Of a stretch of DNA of 64,000 bases, positions 16,818 through 26,499 are shown piece after piece; within the stretch, counting starts at the first letter, position 1; every line of letters begins with the position of its first letter. The notes below the pieces were generated by a model, which saw only the letters and a program-made list of their open reading frames with translations, had not been told where the DNA came from and ran no database searches. The translations under genes were made by a program, and so were the position numbers. The stretch is from Escherichia phage PECP20: the sequence record OQ873415.1. The stretch is one strand, 5' to 3'.

Positions 16818-17147
16818 TTATACTCTAGGCTTTTGAGCTTGTTTGGTATTGGATTCCCATGTGGCTTTGGTAATTTTGTTAGCGGCATAACCAAAGGCAT
16901 TAGATAGAACACCTTTAGAGTTGAATACATCCAATCCAATAAGTACACCGGCTGTGTTAAATTTAGGAGCAAAGTACGCATTAGTTTTAGAAAGAGCTTT
17001 TTTCAATTCAGGGTCTTGAACCAAGTCATCAAAAACGCCTTTACTATTTACTTTATATGTTACTTTGGGATTTTTACTTTCTTCGATAGCAGCTTTCTGT
17101 TCCGCAGATAATGTAACTTCAGTGATAAACTCTTGATATGTTTTCAT
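16818..17147 (-). CDS. internal-protein-like (capsid-targeted) protein, about 110 aa
   Basis: Start set at MKTYQEFITE, the N-terminal capsid targeting leader typical of T4 internal proteins cleaved by prohead protease. Confidence 0.6.
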   Translation of the reverse strand: MKTYQEFITEVTLSAEQKAAIEESKNPKVTYKVNSKGVFDDLVQDPELKKALSKTNAYFAPKFNTAGVLIGLDVFNSKGVLSNAFGYAANKITKATWESNTKQAQKPRV

Positions 17148-17154
17148 TTTTTCC

Positions 17155-17568
17155 TTAGTAAATTGATTTACCATAGTATTTGTACCAAGTCGGACGTTGA
17201 GCAATTTTTTCATCTAAGCGTGCTTGACTTATCGCAATGGACACTTCGGACGGGACATAATTATTACGAAATTCGGCAGGAATGTCGGAAATATCCTGGA
17301 CTGTCGTGTCCTTGATTTTGAAACCACGTTTCAAACATTCAGCGATTAGCTCGATTTGTCGTAAACGTAAAAATTCAAGTTTGTCGTAAAAGAATGTTAC
17401 GTGACCTGTGCCTAAGATAAATGTTGGAGAGATTTTAAAATCCTTTACACGTTTACCGTTTTGAACATGTTTACGGACTGCACCAAATACGCGTGGTAAT
17501 TCACGATACTCAGCCATAAGATGTTGGTCGGACAGTTCAGAAACAAGTGTTAAATTGATACGAGTCAT
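17155..17568 (-). CDS. denV: endonuclease V, pyrimidine dimer DNA glycosylase
   Basis: Start at [12 protein letters not shown]...; about 138 aa, near-identical to T4 DenV as recalled. Confidence 0.92.
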
Positions 17569-17626: not shown

Positions 17627-17908
17627 CTATTTTTCTGAAGCGCCTGAAATATATTTTTCAAGACGTTGTTTCATCAGCGAGCCGTTCTTAGCGATTTCTT
17701 CTGGTTTATCGCACATACGCAACAAGGCTTCAAGCTTAGCGATATCGCTGGTACGTTCAAATTTGCGAGTATCTATCTTACTAGCAAGTTCAGAAATACG
17801 TGCTAATAGACTTTCAGCTTCAACCAAAGCTGCACCTAGCTTAGTTGCAAATGTGTCAGTAGCTTCGTTAAGAATAGATTCTGATAAAAATTCACTATAT
17901 GTTTTCAT
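17627..17908 (-). CDS. internal-protein-like (capsid-targeted) protein, about 93 aa
   Basis: Start set at [10 protein letters not shown] leader; lies between denV and e as ipII/ipIII do in T4. Confidence 0.6.
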
Positions 17909-18393
17909 ATATACGCTTTCCAAGTTCCTGTTTTAAATGTTGAGATTACGCGTTTCGCGCGATTAGGTGTCTGACGATACCATTTAGATTGAGCTAGATT
18001 TACTGCCGCTTCATCCCAACGTTTCTGTTTAAGCATACGAAGAGAATTAGTAAAACCGGCGACTCCTGCTACACCCATTTGGAAGACCATATTGACCAAT
18101 GCACACCGACGAACTGCATCTAAAGAATCATATACCGGTTTAAGTTTAGCATTACCCAAGATTCCGCGAACGGCTTTATCGACGTCTTCATTAAATAGCT
18201 TTTCAGCCTCATCAAGGGTAATTGTACCGTTGCATTTACGACCGATCATTCTGTCAAGTTCAGCTTTAGCTACGGCTAAAGACTGGTTCTTTGTTACCAA
18301 GTGGCCTATGCCAATCGTCCAAAAGCCTTCAGTGTCTTTGTATAAAGTCAGTCTAAGACCTTCGTCATTACGAAGCATTTCAAATATATTCAT
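17905..18393 (-). CDS. e: lysozyme (endolysin), T4 e type
   Basis: [32 protein letters not shown]... near-identical to T4 lysozyme as recalled; catalytic E11 and D20 conserved. Confidence 0.95.
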
Positions 18394-18428
18394 AATACCT
18401 CCCACGTTTATAGGAGGTATTTATTACT
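18394..18428 (-). promoter_or_regulatory. RBS-sequestering hairpin with embedded late-promoter-like sequence upstream of lysozyme gene e
   Basis: mRNA sense AUACCUCC-UAUAAACGUG-GGAGGUAU then AUG; arms pair the Shine-Dalgarno; AATAAATA just upstream. Confidence 0.6.
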
Positions 18429-18886
18429 TATAGGATGGTAGTGAGCACCTTATATAATGATTTGCCCATTACATATTCCCATTGAGAAGGTTTAATTAAA
18501 GCGAATGCATCAAATTCAGGAATCTGTCGTCCGTCTGGGAATGTATGATAGGAATTACAAACACTGTTTCTGAATTGCTCGTGCTCTACAGGGATGGTAT
18601 ATAGGAACAGATGAATATTCTTATTATCTGAGTAATGATGTTCACCTAGGTCTTTCAGGAAGACAGGGTCATATTGTGTAAACCCAGTTTCTTCTTCGCA
18701 TTCACGAATAGCGGCTTCAATAGGAGATTCGCCAGGTTCGACATGGTCTTTAGGAATATCCCACCGATGAGCTAAAGAACCTTTAGGACGAGAACCAGTT
18801 ACACGACCCATGAATAACTCTTTATCTTTTGTCATGAAGATAATACCGGCTGATAGTTCTTTCACTTTATTTTTCTTACTCATCAT
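18428..18886 (-). CDS. nudE: Nudix hydrolase NudE
   Basis: 152 aa with Nudix box GHVEPGESPIEAAIRECEEETG. Confidence 0.85.
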   Translation of the reverse strand: MMSKKNKVKELSAGIIFMTKDKELFMGRVTGSRPKGSLAHRWDIPKDHVEPGESPIEAAIRECEEETGFTQYDPVFLKDLGEHHYSDNKNIHLFLYTIPVEHEQFRNSVCNSYHTFPDGRQIPEFDAFALIKPSQWEYVMGKSLYKVLTTIL

Positions 18887-19127
18887 ATCGGTCCCATGAT
18901 TTGGCCATCAATTCGGACATAAATTCTTCAATGCGCGTTTCTTTAGATGGACTTTCACTATTAGAGACCGCAAGTTTGTAATCTGCAATAGGACAGAACA
19001 TATCAAGGTCCATATTAAGATCGTCTTTGATTTTTTCTTCTGACACATCTTTATCATACGTGTACAGATAACTATCGCATGATTCTGATTTAATGTAAAT
19101 TGCTATACTCATCTCAAATTCCTGCAT
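18876..19127 (-). CDS. hypothetical protein, 83 aa
   Basis: ORF track. Confidence 0.5.
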   Translation of the reverse strand: MQEFEMSIAIYIKSESCDSYLYTYDKDVSEEKIKDDLNMDLDMFCPIADYKLAVSNSESPSKETRIEEFMSELMAKSWDRYDE

Positions 19128-19600
19128 TCGGTAATAAAACGTTCAACTTCGTTATTCTTGGCCTTTATCTTGTCTTTACGTTCCTGTAAACTACTTTTAA
19201 CAAGATTAATAATGATGGCGGCGGTACCGCCGCCAATGATGCCACCAACAACACTTACGATACTAGATGCTAATAAGATAGCAATAATATCAACAAAACC
19301 GAAAGAACTCACCTTAGTACTGAAAAACCATACCGACGGTACAAATATAATCCATCCTGTTATCCATTGGCACTTATTGAAAAACTTTTCAAGCTCAGCT
19401 TGAGTTGTTCGTATTACTTCATCGATAGGTTGATATCCATTAATGTATCTGTTCACGATAATACCTGCTGGCTGGTCGATTTTAAATTCTTGGCAAATAC
19501 GTTTCACTAAGTAGGATGGACATCCTGTCCAATCCACTGAATAGTACGAAATACCTTCGTTGCCATCGTCTATATTAGACCAATATGTTTTGTTAATCAT
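19109..19600 (-). CDS. hypothetical membrane protein, 163 aa
   Basis: ORF track; central hydrophobic helices; C-terminal ERFITECR. Confidence 0.55.
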   Translation of the reverse strand: MINKTYWSNIDDGNEGISYYSVDWTGCPSYLVKRICQEFKIDQPAGIIVNRYINGYQPIDEVIRTTQAELEKFFNKCQWITGWIIFVPSVWFFSTKVSSFGFVDIIAILLASSIVSVVGGIIGGGTAAIIINLVKSSLQERKDKIKAKNNEVERFITECRNLR

Positions 19601-20286
19601 TACCAGCCTTCCATAGGGAATTCCAGATAAACTTGAGCATTGACACGAATTTCATTGGTAATCTTTTTAACTCGGTCTGTATTACGAGATACACGTCCGA
19701 ACCAACGCCATCCATTACTAATTGCACGAGAACCAGTGTGCCATGTTTGCCAATCAAACTGAAGAAGAGTACGGTCCGGAGCTTCCCATTTCTCTAGTTC
19801 ACCTTTTTCAATTTTTTCGAGGACTTCTTTGTGCCACTGGCGATAGATAAGTTCGCCATCAGGAATCTGACTGAACTCTGCAGTTCCTGTTGCAAAATGA
19901 GTAGGACACACATCAGCGTTAACAAGACCAAGAATATGTTCAGACAAATAGCGAGGATTGTCATAGTCAGGTTGTCCTGCAGTAATAAAATGTTGACCAA
20001 CCGGAATATCCGGGCGTGGTACGTCATCATGGTGATAACCAGGAATAGCAGGATACCAACCAGGCATCAGCATATGGACTCGTGAATCAAATACTACATC
20101 TGAGTCTTTCCAATCGTCAGGGAGATTTTGGATAAAGCTACGAGTAATTGGACCGCCGTTATCAAAAGCAAAATTCAAATCGCAATTAAAGAACATAGGC
20201 TCGTTTTTAATCTGGTCATTTTTAATCGCATGAGCAAAACCACCTACTGCACGAGCTTGACTATTAAACACTTTAGAACTATTCAT
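19600..20286 (-). CDS. hypothetical protein, 228 aa, His/Asp-rich
   Basis: ORF track; segments GYHHDDVP and CPTHFATG suggest a metal site, unverified. Confidence 0.6.
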   Translation of the reverse strand: MNSSKVFNSQARAVGGFAHAIKNDQIKNEPMFFNCDLNFAFDNGGPITRSFIQNLPDDWKDSDVVFDSRVHMLMPGWYPAIPGYHHDDVPRPDIPVGQHFITAGQPDYDNPRYLSEHILGLVNADVCPTHFATGTAEFSQIPDGELIYRQWHKEVLEKIEKGELEKWEAPDRTLLQFDWQTWHTGSRAISNGWRWFGRVSRNTDRVKKITNEIRVNAQVYLEFPMEGW

Positions 20287-20287
20287 A

Positions 20288-20593
20288 TTATTTTCCTCGA
20301 CATTCTTTAATGAAATTTTCTAGATTGGTAGATTCAATAGCTTTTTTACGAGCTTCTGCGTGTTCTTCTTCAGACAATTTACATTTATAATTGACCCAGA
20401 CGTTATGGTCGAAACTAGTCGTGGCATATAATAACAATGCTCCAACGAATAGCAAAAACGGCGATAAGAATACAAAACCAGGAACACCATCCATACTGTA
20501 AGCCTTTTGTAATACTGCAACAGAAAGAGCTGCGTAAAAAAGTGATACAAATATTGTTAAAAGACCAATTCGGTTGGTTTCGCCTAATTTCAT
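20288..20593 (-). CDS. hypothetical membrane protein, 101 aa
   Basis: ORF track; two hydrophobic helices; C-terminal ENFIKECR. Confidence 0.55.
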   Translation of the reverse strand: MKLGETNRIGLLTIFVSLFYAALSVAVLQKAYSMDGVPGFVFLSPFLLFVGALLLYATTSFDHNVWVNYKCKLSEEEHAEARKKAIESTNLENFIKECRGK

Positions 20594-20614
20594 AATATTC
20601 TCCTCATGTTTTAA

Positions 20615-20652
20615 TAGGACTACTATAACATAGTCCTATCAGTTTGTACACT
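20615..20652 (-). promoter_or_regulatory. early promoter cassette with inverted repeat
   Basis: Plus strand ataggactactataacatagtcctat then gtacac. Confidence 0.55.
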
Positions 20653-20870
20653 TATTTTGACATTTCTTCGATGTCACGACGATACCCATCACGAACTTCA
20701 CGAAGAGCTTCAAGGCCACACATAGGCTCGATACCAGTAATGTGAACTTGATTAATCTGATACTCTACATCTTCTAACTGAGCGAAAACATAACGACGTT
20801 CTGCTGCACAACCAGGTTTAGCTTTACCGAAACGTTTATTCAAAGTAGTCATTTTTATATCTCCATTCAC
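20652..20870 (-). CDS. hypothetical protein, 72 aa
   Basis: ORF track. Confidence 0.5.
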   Translation of the reverse strand: MNGDIKMTTLNKRFGKAKPGCAAERRYVFAQLEDVEYQINQVHITGIEPMCGLEALREVRDGYRRDIEEMSK

Positions 20871-20879
20871 TCATTTGTT

Positions 20880-20921
20880 TTGATAGGTCTATAGTATCAA
20901 CAACTACAGACCTTGTAAACT
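20880..20921 (-). promoter_or_regulatory. early promoter cassette
   Basis: Plus strand tgataggtctatagtatcaacaactacagaccttgtaaac. Confidence 0.55.
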
Positions 20922-20932
20922 GTTTTGTGAAA

Positions 20933-21889
20933 TTATTTGAAAGGTTTTACCATATGAAAGTTTTGTTTGAAACGCTTGACGTAATCGTCGTGTCCTAAGC
21001 TTTGGTACATACTTACTACTTTGTTATAATTTTCCCAAGCGAACTCACGGAACCATCCTGATGTGATTGATGTACAGACCTTTTCAAGGGCCATCATAAA
21101 ACTATCACGTGGATGGATTTCAAAGTTATTAGGAATCTGAGAACGTTCTAACGCTAGTACACATGATTCTTCGTATACGCCGGCCAATTTGACCATTTCT
21201 GGTAATGATTCGAACTTCTCGCGTGAGGTCATGACTTCAGAACCATCTTTCATATAAAATGTATACGCTGGACGGTCTGTTAGTGCAATGGCTTCATGAA
21301 TAGTATCATGGTCATATGTATAGATGTCATCTTTAAAGAACGCACTTTTAGAAGTGTCAAGAACTGGGTGAGCATAATTCAAGGTTTCTTTCTGGCGTTT
21401 CAGCATAATTTCAGTAAGTTCATCGTTCAGTGTAACACCTTTACCACGAAGATACTGAATATGGTTCATAGTCTTTAAAAAGAATGGATTATTTTTCTTG
21501 AAACGATGAGACATCTTAATTGCAAGACATATCTCAGGAGTTGCCCAGTAAAACCCGTTCAAACGGTCTTTAGTCAAATTTTTCTTGGCGTATTTTAAAA
21601 GGTCATAAGAAGACGTGAAATCTTCAGGAGTGAGTTCACCGACTAGTTCGCGAACGTTAGTGATAGCCGGAACGATGTATGCTTCAAAATGAGTTTCGCG
21701 TCCATTATGGAAGCATTTGAAAACTTGGACATCAGGGTTATCTTGGTGAACATATACACCCATCATTTGATTTTTGAATGCATTCCAAGAACCTTGGTCC
21801 GCAATAAAGTCCCAATCACTATTTTTAATAGCGCTAGAATCAATAAGACCGTGATAGTGAAGTGCACGAGAACCAATAACTAACATCAT
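20933..21889 (-). CDS. hypothetical protein, 318 aa, possible degenerate nucleotidyltransferase-like N-terminus
   Basis: ORF track; N-terminal LVIGSRALHYHG...SDWDF loosely resembles an NTase GS...DxD motif. Confidence 0.65.
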   Translation of the reverse strand: MMLVIGSRALHYHGLIDSSAIKNSDWDFIADQGSWNAFKNQMMGVYVHQDNPDVQVFKCFHNGRETHFEAYIVPAITNVRELVGELTPEDFTSSYDLLKYAKKNLTKDRLNGFYWATPEICLAIKMSHRFKKNNPFFLKTMNHIQYLRGKGVTLNDELTEIMLKRQKETLNYAHPVLDTSKSAFFKDDIYTYDHDTIHEAIALTDRPAYTFYMKDGSEVMTSREKFESLPEMVKLAGVYEESCVLALERSQIPNNFEIHPRDSFMMALEKVCTSITSGWFREFAWENYNKVVSMYQSLGHDDYVKRFKQNFHMVKPFK

Positions 21890-21917
21890 AATATTTTCCT
21901 CGGATTAATTCATTAAC

Positions 21918-22169
21918 TTAAATTTCACGACATGCGATATTATATTCATCCCAGAGGTCATCATGTGAAGCCTCTACCAATGGAACGATTGTACCGTTTA
22001 TGTCTTCATTATAAGGGCAAATTGTACAGTGCGCATCTTCGAATCGGATGCCTTTGTGTTCAGATTTTTTATAACGCATATCGAATATCTTTGCAAACTT
22101 TTCACGAGTAATGGTTTTACCAACCACTTTGGTTCCGATACTTTCGTAATAAATCATTGTGGACTCCAT
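21918..22169 (-). CDS. hypothetical protein, 83 aa
   Basis: ORF track; promoter cassette upstream. Confidence 0.55.
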   Translation of the reverse strand: MESTMIYYESIGTKVVGKTITREKFAKIFDMRYKKSEHKGIRFEDAHCTICPYNEDINGTIVPLVEASHDDLWDEYNIACREI

Positions 22170-22175
22170 TTGTTT

Positions 22176-22216
22176 TGATAGGACTACTATAACATAGCCC
22201 TATCTTGTTGTAAACT
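22176..22216 (-). promoter_or_regulatory. early promoter cassette
   Basis: Plus strand gataggactactataacatagccctatcttgttgtaaac. Confidence 0.55.
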
Positions 22217-22219
22217 GTT

Positions 22220-22417
22220 TTAGCAAGAATAACTAGATGATACCCAGCCTTGAACAGTGATACTATTGTGGGATAATGAGATCGCGTCCTGGAGATTCAG
22301 ACCTGCGTTATCTTCAATCCATAATGTAACTTCTTCGCGTTCTTCTGCTGCAATTTGGAACAGGTTTTCCAGAGCAGCTACTGCCGTACGTACAGCACAA
22401 TCTAATTCACGAGACAT
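22220..22417 (-). CDS. small protein, 65 aa, WxSSSxxC C-terminal family
   Basis: Ends GWVSSSYSC; tandem with two paralogs. Confidence 0.55.
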   Translation of the reverse strand: MSRELDCAVRTAVAALENLFQIAAEEREEVTLWIEDNAGLNLQDAISLSHNSITVQGWVSSSYSC

Positions 22418-22426
22418 ATTGTTTCC

Positions 22427-22654
22427 TTAGCAAGACATAGAGGAAGAGAACCAGAAACCTTTGCCTTCCGGAATTCCATAATCGTTACGGATCCAGCCAT
22501 ATTCATCATATTCTGAACTGGTCGCCGGAATATATCGGTTAAGTCCTTCAGCATACACATGAAAATACTCGCCGGTTTTATCAGCTAATTGTTGGCCTTC
22601 ACAGATTAGTGCTCGAATTTGGTCTTCAATTTCTTTAACGGTTTTAGTGGTCAT
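22427..22654 (-). CDS. small protein, 75 aa, WxSSSxxC C-terminal family
   Basis: Ends GFWFSSSMSC. Confidence 0.55.
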   Translation of the reverse strand: MTTKTVKEIEDQIRALICEGQQLADKTGEYFHVYAEGLNRYIPATSSEYDEYGWIRNDYGIPEGKGFWFSSSMSC

Positions 22655-22663
22655 TTTATTTCC

Positions 22664-22957
22664 TTAACATATTTGAGAAGAGGAGATCCATACACCGGAA
22701 GTAACGATACCATTTTCGTCAACTTCACCGCCATAGTTTTCAATTTCATCGCGCATCCAGCGACTACATTCATAACCAACAGGATAGTAAGTACGACCTG
22801 AACCATATTCACCTACATCAAATGAAACACCATACTTATCTGCGATAATAGTAGCTTCATTCTCGATATGGTCTTGAGCACGAAGAAGTTTGCTGATTGC
22901 TTCTTCTGCAGATTTAGCGTCATTGTATTCAGGGATTACGATTTCAATTTTACTCAT
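22664..22957 (-). CDS. small protein, 97 aa, WxSSSxxC C-terminal family
   Basis: Ends GVWISSSQIC. Confidence 0.55.
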   Translation of the reverse strand: MSKIEIVIPEYNDAKSAEEAISKLLRAQDHIENEATIIADKYGVSFDVGEYGSGRTYYPVGYECSRWMRDEIENYGGEVDENGIVTSGVWISSSQIC

Positions 22958-23313
22958 TTTCTACATTCCTTAATAAAGTTTTCGATTGTTTCATTTTCAC
23001 GTTTAGCTAGGAGTTCATTATAACTAATCATTTGAGAAGCGTAAACCTTTTTATTTTTCTTGTTGTGGTTTATAAAATCGTAGTAAAAATAGACTACAGT
23101 ACAAAATGATGCGATGGATGCAAAGGCTTGGGTATACCGTAAGTCCTGCCATTGGTCTGTGAATCCACCAGTGTTCCCTATAAATCCTAACACAACGCCG
23201 TCAATAAGAAATCCAACTAATCCAAAGGCAAATCCCATGCCAATACTCATAATAAAAATTAGAATGTTCTCACCAAGAGAAGGCCATACGGTTAAGAGTT
23301 GAGGCTTTTGCAT
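22954..23313 (-). CDS. hypothetical membrane protein, 119 aa
   Basis: ORF track; hydrophobic helices; C-terminal ENFIKECRK. Confidence 0.55.
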   Translation of the reverse strand: MQKPQLLTVWPSLGENILIFIMSIGMGFAFGLVGFLIDGVVLGFIGNTGGFTDQWQDLRYTQAFASIASFCTVVYFYYDFINHNKKNKKVYASQMISYNELLAKRENETIENFIKECRK

Positions 23314-23687
23314 CTTATTTCCTTAACGAATTCCATAGCTTCTTCATATTCATACTTTTTAACAGCTTCATCATACTGAGCTTGGGCTTTTGCGCACTGA
23401 ACTTTCCATTCTCTTAATCGGGCTCTGTGATGACGGCCTTGGTGCCAATATCCTACCCAATTAATAGGCATTAATAAAAACGGTACAATAAGTGGTGCGA
23501 CGAACATTAATGAAAATGCTGCATCAGACGATATAACTTCACTAGAATCTAAAACAGCTCCTATAATCATAAAGATTAAAAATGCTAAAGCTAAAATAGG
23601 ACCAAATAATACTTCATACGGGATTAATTTACGTTTGTATTCGTAGGCCCAGGGCTTACTTGGCATGTATAGGGTTGGCTTTGACAT
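23292..23687 (-). CDS. hypothetical membrane protein, about 131 aa
   Basis: Track ORF trimmed to ATG (MSKPTLYM...); hydrophobic helices. Confidence 0.55.
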   Translation of the reverse strand: MSKPTLYMPSKPWAYEYKRKLIPYEVLFGPILALAFLIFMIIGAVLDSSEVISSDAAFSLMFVAPLIVPFLLMPINWVGYWHQGRHHRARLREWKVQCAKAQAQYDEAVKKYEYEEAMEFVKEIRCKSLNS

Positions 23688-24279
23688 ATTCTCTACATTC
23701 CATAATAAATTGCTCAAGGATTAAATTGTTAGTGAAATTAGGACTAACAACCATAGTTTCATAAAGCGCATCAATAGCACTTAAAGCATCAACTCTTTTA
23801 AGCAAAGGCTTGCCTTCATACATAGTTTCAGAATCGATGATTAACGTAAAGTAATATTTTTTATTATCGACTAGAACTTCTGTATCGATATAAAACATAT
23901 TAGACCTCAGAAGCTTATCTCTAAAACCATAATAATCTTCAGAGCGTTCGCTGATATATTCCCATTCAGTGTTTAAACAACAAACAGACCACGTAGGAGC
24001 AACGAAATCAGTGAATCTAATATCATGGTCTGCAACTAGTTTAGCAATAGCTCCGATATCATGAATCATAATACCTGGGGCTAATAAAGATTTTCTGCTA
24101 TGGCTAGCCGTTTTCTCGGTGGTCTCATAAGAAGACGACCAGTACCATTTACGTCCGGTTGCAACATATCGTAATGAATCAACTAAAGACGTAGGTGGAT
24201 TTACCTTATCTCGGAACTCTTCGAACATTGAGTCAATATCATTATTTTGGTTTCGCATGTTAGCTCCTTTATTATCCAA
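23656..24279 (-). CDS. hypothetical protein, 207 aa
   Basis: ORF track; C-terminal EQFIMECRE. Confidence 0.6.
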   Translation of the reverse strand: MDNKGANMRNQNNDIDSMFEEFRDKVNPPTSLVDSLRYVATGRKWYWSSSYETTEKTASHSRKSLLAPGIMIHDIGAIAKLVADHDIRFTDFVAPTWSVCCLNTEWEYISERSEDYYGFRDKLLRSNMFYIDTEVLVDNKKYYFTLIIDSETMYEGKPLLKRVDALSAIDALYETMVVSPNFTNNLILEQFIMECREYVKANPIHAK

Positions 24280-24305
24280 AAGGAGGACCGGAGTCCTCCG
24301 TATTA
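24276..24305 (-). terminator. hairpin GGAGGAC-UCCG-GUCCUCC followed by U-rich tract
   Basis: Perfect 7-bp stem between two genes. Confidence 0.5.
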
Positions 24306-24307
24306 TT

Positions 24308-24901
24308 TTATTTCAAAGAGTTAATATATTCTTGTACATCAGCAGAAGTGGTTTCGACACCAGCTGGAGTGCCATTGAACGTTTCAACACGAGTCAGAGT
24401 GTCTTCGATATCAACCTTAGTCAGTGCAGCGATTTCAATTACATCGTCAGCGGTAGAGATACCAAGGGCATTGGCTGCTCGAGTTTCACGAATGTATTCG
24501 AGTTTGATTGCCAGGTTCTGACGAGCATCGTCAAGTTCAACCACCTTACGAGCAATTTCAATTCGCATAGCGGCATACCCGTCAGCTTTTGTATTAAGTT
24601 GTTCGGCAGTTCGACGATACAGAAGACCAAGCTTAGCATGCATGGTAACATCTTGTCCTTCAGCCAGGAGTTTACGAATTTCACGTTCCTTAGAAGCGGC
24701 TTGCTTGTTCTTTTCATTAACAAGTTCGCGAATACGTTTTTCTTCATTAATAGATTTAACAGAAGCCGTTTTTAGTTCTTTGATTTGGGTAATCAACTTA
24801 TCTGCAGCTGCGTTATACTGTTCTTCGACAGTCAGATTTTTAGCCATGGCAGTACCCAGTTTAGTGCGAATGAATTCAACAAGTTTCTTCAGAGTGTTCA
24901 T
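24308..24901 (-). CDS. coiled-coil protein, 197 aa, possibly PspA/IM30-like
   Basis: Long heptad-rich helical sequence; resemblance to PspA is by eye only. Confidence 0.6.
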
Positions 24902-25872: not shown

Positions 25873-26499
25873 TTACTTACGAGTTTTTGCATACTGAGCA
25901 GCGTCAGCAGCCAAACGACCTGCTTGTCGAAGTTTTTCTTTAATCTCATCATGAAGTGGTTGAGTATACTTCAAACCTTCGATAGTCAAATAAAGACGAT
26001 AAAGGTCTGGGGTATCAAGGTTGTTGATATGTTGGCCATTACGAAGACTATTGAATTCACGAACGAGTGAAGATGTATCAGATTCAATATCACGAACAAG
26101 CGAAGATAGTTGTTTATATTTTTTTTCCAGGCTAGAAGTATCAAACTTAAGAGCAGGAGCTTTAGGAGTTGCTTTTACTTCCGGCTTAGGCTCAGGTTTT
26201 GCTACTGCTTTAGGGGTCGCAGGTTTAGGAGTGGTAGGAGCAGGTTTTACTTTAGGCGAACCAGATTTAGCAGAAACACCACCACTAACAATATCTTTGA
26301 ATGCTTTAGAAGCTCTGTAATATTCTTTTTGGCTGGAAGTGTCGATACCGTACATGGCTTGAACGTTTTTGAAAAACTCTGTACTAGTTTTTGTACCAGA
26401 AATAGCATCGTAAGCAGCTTGCCATTTCTCTTTTGTCATACGTACACCGGCTTCGGTGATTACTTCCGTTTCGGCTAAAAATTCATTAAAAGTATACAT
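25873..26499 (-). CDS. internal-protein-like capsid-targeted protein, 208 aa, with Pro/Lys/Ala-rich linker
   Basis: N-terminal MYTFNEFLAETE resembles the T4 capsid targeting leader; central KPAPTTPKPATPKAVAKPEPKPEVKATPKAP low-complexity tract. Confidence 0.6.
   Translation of the reverse strand: MYTFNEFLAETEVITEAGVRMTKEKWQAAYDAISGTKTSTEFFKNVQAMYGIDTSSQKEYYRASKAFKDIVSGGVSAKSGSPKVKPAPTTPKPATPKAVAKPEPKPEVKATPKAPALKFDTSSLEKKYKQLSSLVRDIESDTSSLVREFNSLRNGQHINNLDTPDLYRLYLTIEGLKYTQPLHDEIKEKLRQAGRLAADAAQYAKTRK

Follow-up and report, generated by a model that had tools for sequence, protein, structure and literature searches.

Five neighboring genes on the minus strand of the 64,000-nucleotide stretch of Escherichia phage PECP20 analyzed here (record OQ873415.1, called the window below) encode proteins that share a short peptide of the type F-I-x-E-C-R near their C-termini. 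This T4-like myovirus belongs to the genus Mosigvirus and has 98.7% identity to Escherichia phage LH01 over 5.4 kb; nudE and the lysozyme gene e (17905-18405) lie downstream of the five genes, which occupy the region that carries genes e.2 to e.6 in T4. An earlier note on this DNA had pointed out the recurrent tails and had proposed that their conservation reflects an element shared by gene junctions. Our analysis indicates that the motif is very probably a selected peptide, conserved at the amino-acid level and not at the nucleotide level, and that its codons, often the two variable ones, also house the Shine-Dalgarno (SD) sequences of the downstream genes.

Recurrence of the motif in the window

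All five open reading frames (ORFs) proved to be real minus-strand genes. By comparison with T4, 23656-24258 is e.5, 23292-23687 is e.4, 22954-23313 is e.3, and 24308-24901, their neighbor upstream, is e.6, while 19109-19600 is a full-length version of e.2 that we refer to as e.2L. The remaining gene, P2 (20288-20593), lies inside a block of ~3.4 kb between e.3 and e.2 that is present in Mosigviruses and not in T4, and P2 itself was seen only in Mosigviruses among the phages sampled. Read up to the stop codon, the tails are ERFITECRNLR (e.2L), ENFIKECRGK (P2), ENFIKECRK (e.3), EFVKEIRCKSLNS (e.4), and QFIMECREYVKANPIHAK (e.5). The motif is therefore near the C-terminus in all five proteins, but it lies 1-11 residues before the stop codon rather than at the very end as had first been described.

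The e.5-like protein (23656..24258, 200 aa, phrog_2607) is soluble, has 47% identity to T4 e.5, and carries FIMECR at 23692-23709, beyond which 11 further residues overlap the start of e.4. Its ORF had been drawn from a TTG at 24279, and the ATG at 24258 is the likelier start. The e.4-like protein (23292..23687, 131 aa) has two predicted transmembrane (TM) segments and the variant motif FVKEIR at 23313-23330, with the ATG of e.3 spanning its R-C codons (AGA TGC). In the e.3-like protein (22954..23313, 119 aa), FIKECR is encoded at 22960-22977 by TTTATTAAGGAATGTAGA; our TM scan gave one TM segment for this protein and two for T4 e.3. P2 (20288..20593, 101 aa, two TM segments) has FIKECR at 20297-20314 (TTCATTAAAGAATGTCGA) and matches phrog_9798 and, weakly, phrog_2203. 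Finally, e.2L (19109..19600, 163 aa) carries FITECR at 19121-19138 and consists of a soluble N-terminal domain, a TM hairpin, and a charged helix, in that order; its counterpart in RB69 is labelled "e.2 conserved hypothetical, predicted membrane protein". TM segments are predicted in four of the five carriers and not in three, as had been counted before. Searches of Pfam and NCBIfam returned no informative family for any carrier, and in PHROGs the carriers matched only function-unknown or "membrane protein" families. The precomputed Pfam labels are of the DUF type, namely PF26896 for e.2 and PF26876 (Phage_T4_Y06P) for e.5.

The T4 version of e.2 deserves a separate comment. As annotated it has 102 aa, while the gene has 162 aa in other Tequatroviruses (L002 3480-3961, T4 ~67.48-67.96 kb). 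The shortening results from a -1 deletion in an A-run and a +1 insertion ~75 nt later, and with the frame restored the tail ...NNFITECRKLK is still coded up to its stop, overlapping the nudE start. Either these frameshifts are real and T4 e.2 is a pseudogene, or they go back to an old sequencing error in the reference.

The recurrence of the motif is far beyond chance. In a six-frame translation of the 64 kb, the strict pattern FI.ECR occurs four times, always in the cluster, and the looser pattern [FYW][IVLM].E[CI]R gains only e.4. At the DNA level, the degenerate pattern TTYRTNNNNGAWTGYMG has four matches compared with 0.06 expected from shuffles, and the sequence found in e.3 has three matches with at most three mismatches, compared with 0.14 expected. 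The tails had been attributed to a conserved nucleotide block, and this 18-mer is indeed exact in e.3, but it has one mismatch in e.5, three in P2, four in e.2L, and five in e.4. It is not a general translation-initiation consensus and is absent from the other initiation regions of the window. No further C-terminal copy of the motif was found among the 216 ORFs of the window or among 233 ORFs of T4 (1-64 kb); the T4 tails themselves contain FVKECR (e.5), FVKESR-C (e.4), and FVIDCR (e.3).

Two other candidates were rejected. The sole match outside the cluster, YVSLCRK in thymidine kinase (~11.6 kb), appears only with a pattern loosened to an aromatic first residue and is unrelated. An 83-aa protein (21918-22169, minus strand) ending in EYNIACREI was considered as a degenerate sixth carrier and set aside, as it has no blastp-detectable homology to the carrier family found at this position in Merlin, RZH, and Marfa. 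In Merlin, RZH, and locus L030, a motif carrier occupies this place upstream of the DUF7275 gene.

Distribution among T4-like phages

To follow the motif beyond the window, we gathered homologous regions by using e.6 as the anchor, which was more productive than a locus search anchored on e.5 alone (2 loci). This gave 16 IMG/VR loci, and 1101 records in a GenBank phage collection contain e.6. Annotated regions were taken from Marfa, Roth21, Merlin, CHI14, RZH, Aeromonas avDM5, Serratia WSPA, and RB43, together with metagenomic contigs. In nearly every lineage (at least 10), each genome has three to six genes between e.6 and nudE/e whose products end in [F/W]-[I/V]-x-x-C-[R/K]. These lineages include Mosig-, Tequatro-, Dhaka/JS98-like, Marfa-, Moon-, Winkler-, Karam-, Biquarta-, and Pseudotevenvirus, as well as the unclassified Klebsiella phage Roth21 and metagenomic contigs. 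Only one carrier each is present in Aeromonas avDM5 and RB43, and Serratia WSPA has the degenerate forms IIHQAR and AIHEAR.

The variants are numerous: FIKHCR, FIKYCR, WIKGCRK, WVKGCRK, WIRSCRK, FINSCR, FIMQCR, FVKMCR, FIKGCRK, FINNCR, FISKCR, FIRMCR, FINYCR, FVDYCRR, and FIHSCKK, and, in the e.4 type, forms in which Cys is exchanged for a hydrophobic residue (FVKEIR, FLKEIR, FIKEVR, FVMEMR). They can be summarized as [D/E]-Φ-x-x-[F/W]-[I/V]-x-x-C-[R/K], in which Cys is occasionally replaced by I, V, M, or A. The E at position 4 of the motif is conserved only in T4, Mosig, and JS98-like phages; elsewhere the residue is G, Y, S, N, or M. Between 0 and 25 residues (median ~4) separate the motif from the C-terminal end in 48 non-redundant tails.

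We found no description of this motif, nor of the function of e.2-e.6, in literature searches. A profile of the 45-50 tail residues was compared with an index of 5.8 billion proteins and recovered fragments of the same families only, without new carriers; one 83-aa match (P0032) looks like a chimeric assembly. Homologue searches with e.2L and with the e.5 alignment returned close relatives only.

Selection at the level of the peptide

Variation at synonymous sites offers a direct way to distinguish a conserved peptide from a conserved nucleotide block. Among 54 distinct 18-nt versions of the motif, Arg is encoded by all six of its codons (CGT 15, AGA 14, AGG 9, CGC 5, CGA 3, CGG 3), Cys by both TGT (26) and TGC (18), and Phe by both TTT (35) and TTC (15), with TGG (Trp) taking the place of Phe four times. 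Nucleotide conservation across these versions is 3-periodic: the first two bases of the codons are fixed, while third bases, and in the Arg codon also the first, are free to vary. Even within the window, the octapeptide ENFIKECR common to P2 and e.3 is encoded with four synonymous differences and no non-synonymous one. The residues that precede the motif tell a similar story. Although the search pattern did not include position -3, a hydrophobic residue is found there in 90% of the 48 non-redundant tails, compared with 12-29% at the six nearest flanking positions (-6 to -4, -2, -1), and it is preserved via unrelated codons. Positions -4, -2, and -1 are acidic or Asn, and the preference for Cys within the motif amounts to 81%.

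Because of the codon usage, the 3-periodicity, and the hydrophobic residue at -3, we are confident that selection acts on the peptide, presumably as an amphipathic helix. The positions -3, 0, +1, and +4 indicate the hydrophobic face of such a predicted helix. A membrane-targeting amphipathic helix was rejected, as its hydrophobic face would extend over only ~9 residues and its flanks are acidic.

Carrier families and a possible docking helix

The motif is found in several families of proteins that, for the most part, have no other similarity in our comparisons. The e.5 family is soluble (178-306 aa) and is always directly downstream of e.6. A full HMMER scan of 1.84 billion representative proteins recovered only 13 relatives, and all nine full-length representatives retrieved, with less than 50% mutual identity, keep F-[IV]-x-x-C-[RK]. 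When twelve members were aligned (~15% identity), the motif was the best-conserved block and its Arg the sole nearly invariant column. In a second type of carrier, small proteins that include e.4, e.3, e.2L, P2, and several others, the motif comes after a TM hairpin and then a charged helix of ~40 residues; according to the positive-inside rule, the K/R-rich tails of these proteins should face the cytoplasm. There are also small soluble carriers, namely a family of 95-131 aa in Marfa, Merlin, and RZH, and a 102-aa protein in Roth21. In hhalign comparisons, which were made with shallow alignments, e.3 and e.4 match over their full length (E=2e-5), showing the two to be apparent full-length paralogues, and e.2L and P2 share the second TM segment and the tail (62 columns, E=5e-5). 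The remaining pairs match over 9-24 tail residues only, and three pairs involving e.4 gave no significant match. AF2 places the motif of e.5 within a predicted C-terminal helix (residues 178-194), albeit with low confidence (pLDDT 51.7), and this model was not used for a fold search because its pLDDT was too low.

Based on these patterns, we suggest that the motif would form the last two turns of a C-terminal helix that is closed by the basic residue, and that this helix would serve as a common docking or assembly element tying the early proteins to one partner or to each other. The candidate partner would be either the always-adjacent e.6 or a host protein. A docking role fits the largely unrelated bodies of the carriers, the strictly terminal position of the motif, and its amphipathic pattern; a shared docking or assembly helix is nevertheless offered tentatively, as a plausible role that falls somewhat short of being the probable one. 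C-terminal docking motifs of this general kind are well known, such as the FtsZ C-terminal peptide D-I-P-x-F-L-R-K, SSB tails, and ClpX C-motifs. Like these, the phage motif is a peptide of ~9 residues with hydrophobic residues at i, i+3, and i+4 and a closing basic residue, and it is found at the extreme C-terminus, after a charged linker, in proteins that are otherwise unrelated. It thus has the features by which docking motifs are recognized, being short, conserved in amino acids, and placed near the C-terminus of unrelated proteins. Unlike the FtsZ peptide, it has no Pro, and its conserved Cys has no counterpart in these systems; we do not claim membership in any of them.

Another possibility is that the motif is a structural remnant of common ancestry, in which each protein kept its own helix end or self-association element after tandem duplication and no partner is shared. 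The tandem clustering of the carriers and the combination of two TM segments and a charged helix in most of them would fit such a history, as would the e.3/e.4 and e.2L/P2 matches described above. However, soluble families (e.5, the Marfa/Merlin/RZH family, and the 102-aa protein of Roth21) carry the motif without a TM hairpin, the similarity of most families is limited to 16-20 residues, and the motif remains the best-kept segment where family identity has fallen to ~15%. We therefore consider shared ancestry unlikely as the explanation for the motif.

Overlap with downstream Shine-Dalgarno sequences

The motif also adjoins the next gene, as the earlier note had stated, with the start codon falling -1 to +10 nt from the motif at all five junctions of the window. 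The further claim that the motif block is the ribosome binding site of the next gene holds to the extent that codons rich in purines, located within the motif or directly behind it (AAGGAA, TGCAGGAA, CGAGGAAAA), act as SD sequences, but the conserved residues are left unexplained by the junction. Four of the five starts are preceded by such an SD at a distance of 6-9 nt. In e.3, AAGGA serves the ATG at 22957; in P2, GAGGA in the R-G codons after the motif serves the ATG at 20286; in e.2L, AGGAA in the C-R-N codons serves the ATG at 19112; and at the e.5 junction a weaker GGAA lies 11 nt upstream of the next start. The register of the SD shifts while the peptide stays unchanged, as it is found in the x-x codons (AAG GAA) in e.3, e.4, and T4 e.5, in the C-R codons (TGC AGG A) in e.2L and T4 e.3, and in the R-G codons (CGA GGA) in P2. 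Such a shift can also be seen at a single junction. Downstream of e.2L lies a 78-aa gene (MSIAIYIKSESCD..., 18876..19112, minus strand) whose ATGA start overlaps the e.2L stop, and JS98-like phages have the same partner at this junction with the SD in a different register: the e.2L-to-MSIAIY junction reads GAG GAA TGC CGT AAA TGA in JS98-like phages and ACC GAA TGC AGG AAT TTG AGA TGA in the window.

To put these observations on a broader footing, we measured how far the next start lies from the last codon of the motif at 41 curated junctions. The median is +8 nt, and the distance is at most 10 nt at 28 junctions, 11-25 nt at nine, and more than 25 nt at four. The fourth residue of the motif is E or G (GAR/GGN) in 12 of 14 cases with the start at +3 nt or closer, compared with 3 of 13 at +14 nt or farther (Fisher p=0.0018), and where the next start follows at +1-2 nt, the two variable codons spell an SD (K-E, K-G, E-E). 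In these comparisons, the demand for an SD is an explanation for the variable residues of the motif and not for its conserved core.

The motif is also kept in homologues that lack the junction sequence, where the next start is +14 to +88 nt away or follows an intergenic gap. The earlier note had itself named such retention as the finding that would refute its proposal. The JS98-type e.5 is followed at +22 nt by an e.4-like gene (MRTLYLP) with its own SD, AAAGAGG, and in CHI14 the motif is likewise kept with the next start at +22 nt. The distance is +38 nt from FIAKCRAK to lysozyme in Roth21, +65 nt from FIRMCR...SSVL to the DUF7275 gene in RZH, where an intergenic gap of 29 nt intervenes, +77 nt in RB43, and +88 nt in Aeromonas avDM5. 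These distant starts are backed by the conserved N-termini of the downstream proteins. With all six Arg codons in use, a 3-periodic pattern of conservation, and starts this far away, the view that conservation reflects a junction element and not protein function fails for the core of the motif.

The simplest account of the junctions is gene compaction with the SD placed in free or synonymous positions. The next start would have moved up to the last constrained codon, the tail past the motif would be an unselected overlap, and the SD would have been fitted either into the two free positions of the motif or into synonymous Arg codons (TGC AGG A, CGA GGA). ATGA-type coupled overlapping genes are common in T4 and other phages, and the junctions resemble them in having overlaps or gaps of at most 10 nt and an SD in the last upstream codons. 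They differ in that the F/W, I/V, C, and R/K residues and the hydrophobic residue at -3 are kept via synonymous codons or codons for chemically similar residues, and also without an adjacent start. Stop/start coupling with an embedded SD is ordinary, while the shared peptide tag appears to be undescribed.

It is worth considering whether the motif could act in cis as a nascent peptide, with pausing or termination of the ribosome being modulated in a way that aids re-initiation downstream. This would combine selection at the amino-acid level with a position that tracks the downstream start (median +8 nt), and the arrest peptides SecM and MifM also have aromatic-Ile pairs. However, the carriers are proteins of 95-306 aa with conserved domains or TM hairpins and not dedicated leader ORFs, the motif persists at 65-88 nt from any start, and no Pro or Gly of the arrest type follows it. 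A ribosome stalled at the motif would presumably also hide the SD and start of the downstream gene instead of exposing them, and overall we believe that a role of this kind is improbable.

Still harder to defend is the idea of a pure junction or translation-initiation element, of which the peptide would be a passive read-out. It would be in keeping with the proximity of the motif to the next start at all five junctions of the window and at 28 of the 41 curated junctions, with an SD-like AAGGAA, AGGAA, or GAGGA at a spacing of 6-9 nt before four of the five starts, with the SD-like x-x codons where the start is at +2, and with the close resemblance of GTTAAGGAAATAAGATG in e.4 to the intergenic translation initiation region TGTTAAGGAAATAAAATG at 22654-22671. 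It is at odds with the use of six Arg, both Cys, and both Phe codons, with the exchange of F for W, and with an SD register that shifts while the peptide stays constant. The retention of the motif at +22 to +88 nt and across intergenic gaps, the absence of the 18-mer from the other initiation regions of the window, and the hydrophobic residue at -3 encoded by unrelated codons also stand against it, leaving this explanation very doubtful.

A recombination linker, which would provide micro-homology for modular gene shuffling in the manner of PeSL elements, is barely credible: the region is plastic, with its ~3.4-kb Mosigvirus block between e.3 and e.2, and the e.5 tails persist although the protein bodies are very different from one genus to another, but nucleotide identity stops at the codons and is broken at synonymous sites, and true PeSL-like cassettes are found at other, intergenic sites.

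A possible common target

We return to the reading in which the motif is a selected peptide with an SD fitted in and serves as an inferred docking helix, which as a whole we consider probable. Several points weigh against it. The putative partner is a guess and the function is inferred. The preference for Cys (81%) is unexplained by simple helix packing; the conserved Cys may have a chemical role instead, such as in metal binding or redox chemistry. As 28 of the 41 motifs lie within 10 nt of the next start, a cis-acting role in translation is possible, and the single carrier of avDM5 and of RB43 argues against an obligatory hetero-assembly among carriers. The AF2 model of e.5 is poor (pLDDT 51.7). 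The link to e.6 rests on synteny and a weak fold match (Foldseek E=4e-3) without sequence or profile support, and the co-occurrence with e.6 is biased because the loci were anchored on this gene.

The highly conserved e.6-like protein (24308..24901, minus strand, 197 aa) is the neighbor upstream of e.5, and e.6 adjoins the e.5 family in every lineage of our e.6-anchored sample. A single-sequence AF2 model of e.6 is a long helical hairpin (helices 2-80 and 86-161; pLDDT 75.7, core >90), and its top Foldseek matches in the PDB are Vipp1 and PspA of the ESCRT-III superfamily (E=4e-3 to 0.1, TM-score 0.5-0.59). Similarity of e.6 to PspA_IM30 did not emerge at the sequence or profile level: there was no Pfam match and no PDB match by phmmer or profile, and hhalign against E. 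coli PspA gave a probability of 0.6%. We accordingly rejected e.6 as a sequence homologue of PspA, which leaves a weak resemblance in fold. The arrangement of a gene for a predicted helical hairpin beside small TM proteins with cytoplasmic helices would be analogous to PspA, Vipp1, or LiaH together with PspB/C or LiaI, but it differs from these systems in that the Foldseek E-values of e.6 (4e-3 to 0.1) come with no support from Pfam, PDB sequences, or hhalign. Judging from the model, e.6 may be a phage PspA-like protein encoded beside small membrane proteins, and as a candidate partner of the motif tails it is only a lead.

More speculatively, the motif might be an "address tag" that recruits the soluble e.5 and up to five small inner-membrane proteins to one target. 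This target could be the Vipp1/PspA-like e.6 or a host factor of the envelope or cell division. We consider this reading less likely than not, but if it is true, these genes would make up a new early module that is associated with the membrane and has multiple components. Like many other conserved early genes of T-even phages, the T4 genes e.2-e.8 have no assigned function, and a tag common to three to six adjacent genes in at least 10 lineages suggests joint action or a single target. The 9-residue peptide, together with point mutants that spare the ribosome binding site, provides a handle for finding it. The locus further provides a clear case of dual coding, in which selection for a peptide and for an SD is resolved within the same six codons, and it cautions against reading recurrent junction sequences as purely regulatory.

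Other elements of the region

Two types of intergenic element were identified near the motif genes. Three PeSL-like cassettes (20603-20657, 20872-20926, and 22167-22221, minus strand) consist of TTTACA/TGTACA-N17-TATAGT/TACTAT, which resembles an early promoter, and the internal palindrome TAGGACTA...TAGTCCTA. They match published PeSL elements and lie among the Mosigvirus-specific genes between e.3 and e.2. PeSL elements are mobile cassettes of a promoter and a stem-loop, intergenic and non-coding, with TTTACW-N17-TAYWAT and a hairpin, found in hyperplastic regions of T4-type phages (PMC2839356, PMC4122927). The motif blocks resemble them as short sequences that recur at gene borders of the same hyperplastic region, but the blocks are coding, have no promoter or hairpin at the five junctions, and vary at synonymous sites. 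The second element is a terminator-like, G+C-rich hairpin, GGAGGACTCCGGTCCTCC, followed by TTTT (24282..24299, minus strand), between e.6 and e.5. No promoter-like site is listed before e.5, so that e.5 to e.3 and the paralogues described next may depend on read-through or on upstream promoters.

A second C-terminal motif was found at 22220-22957 (minus strand), where tandem paralogues of 65, 75, and 97 aa end in GWVSSSYSC, FWFSSSMSC, and VWISSSQIC, respectively. Related phages have two to five tandem copies of this W-SSS-C type (...WVSSSEMC, ...WYPSSC; loci L012 9522-10778, L020, L022, L023, L024, L026, and L030). The 97-aa copy matches phrog_899, and in the 97-aa and 75-aa copies the TAA stop lies within the SD of the next gene (TGTTAAGGAAAT..ATG).

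Three internal-protein-like genes on the minus strand (16818-17213, 17627-17923, and 25873-26499) encode starts of the T4 capsid-targeting type, such as MYTFNEFLAE. The capsid targeting sequence of T4, MKTYQEFIAE, is found at the N-terminus of head proteins, and the gp21 protease cleaves at (L/I)-x-E. The C-terminal motif has the string E-F-I-x-E in common with this signal but differs in its position and in the E at position 4, which is specific to certain lineages; for the latter reason a gp21 cleavage site or a signal like the capsid targeting sequence was ruled out, and the resemblance is probably a coincidence.

Two larger minus-strand genes of the region encode proteins without the motif. 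One is a 228-aa protein (19600-20286, phrog_1843) that ends in ...VYLEFPMEGW, and the other is a 318-aa DUF7277/DUF7275 protein (20933-21889); both are conserved among the motif carriers in most of the lineages sampled.

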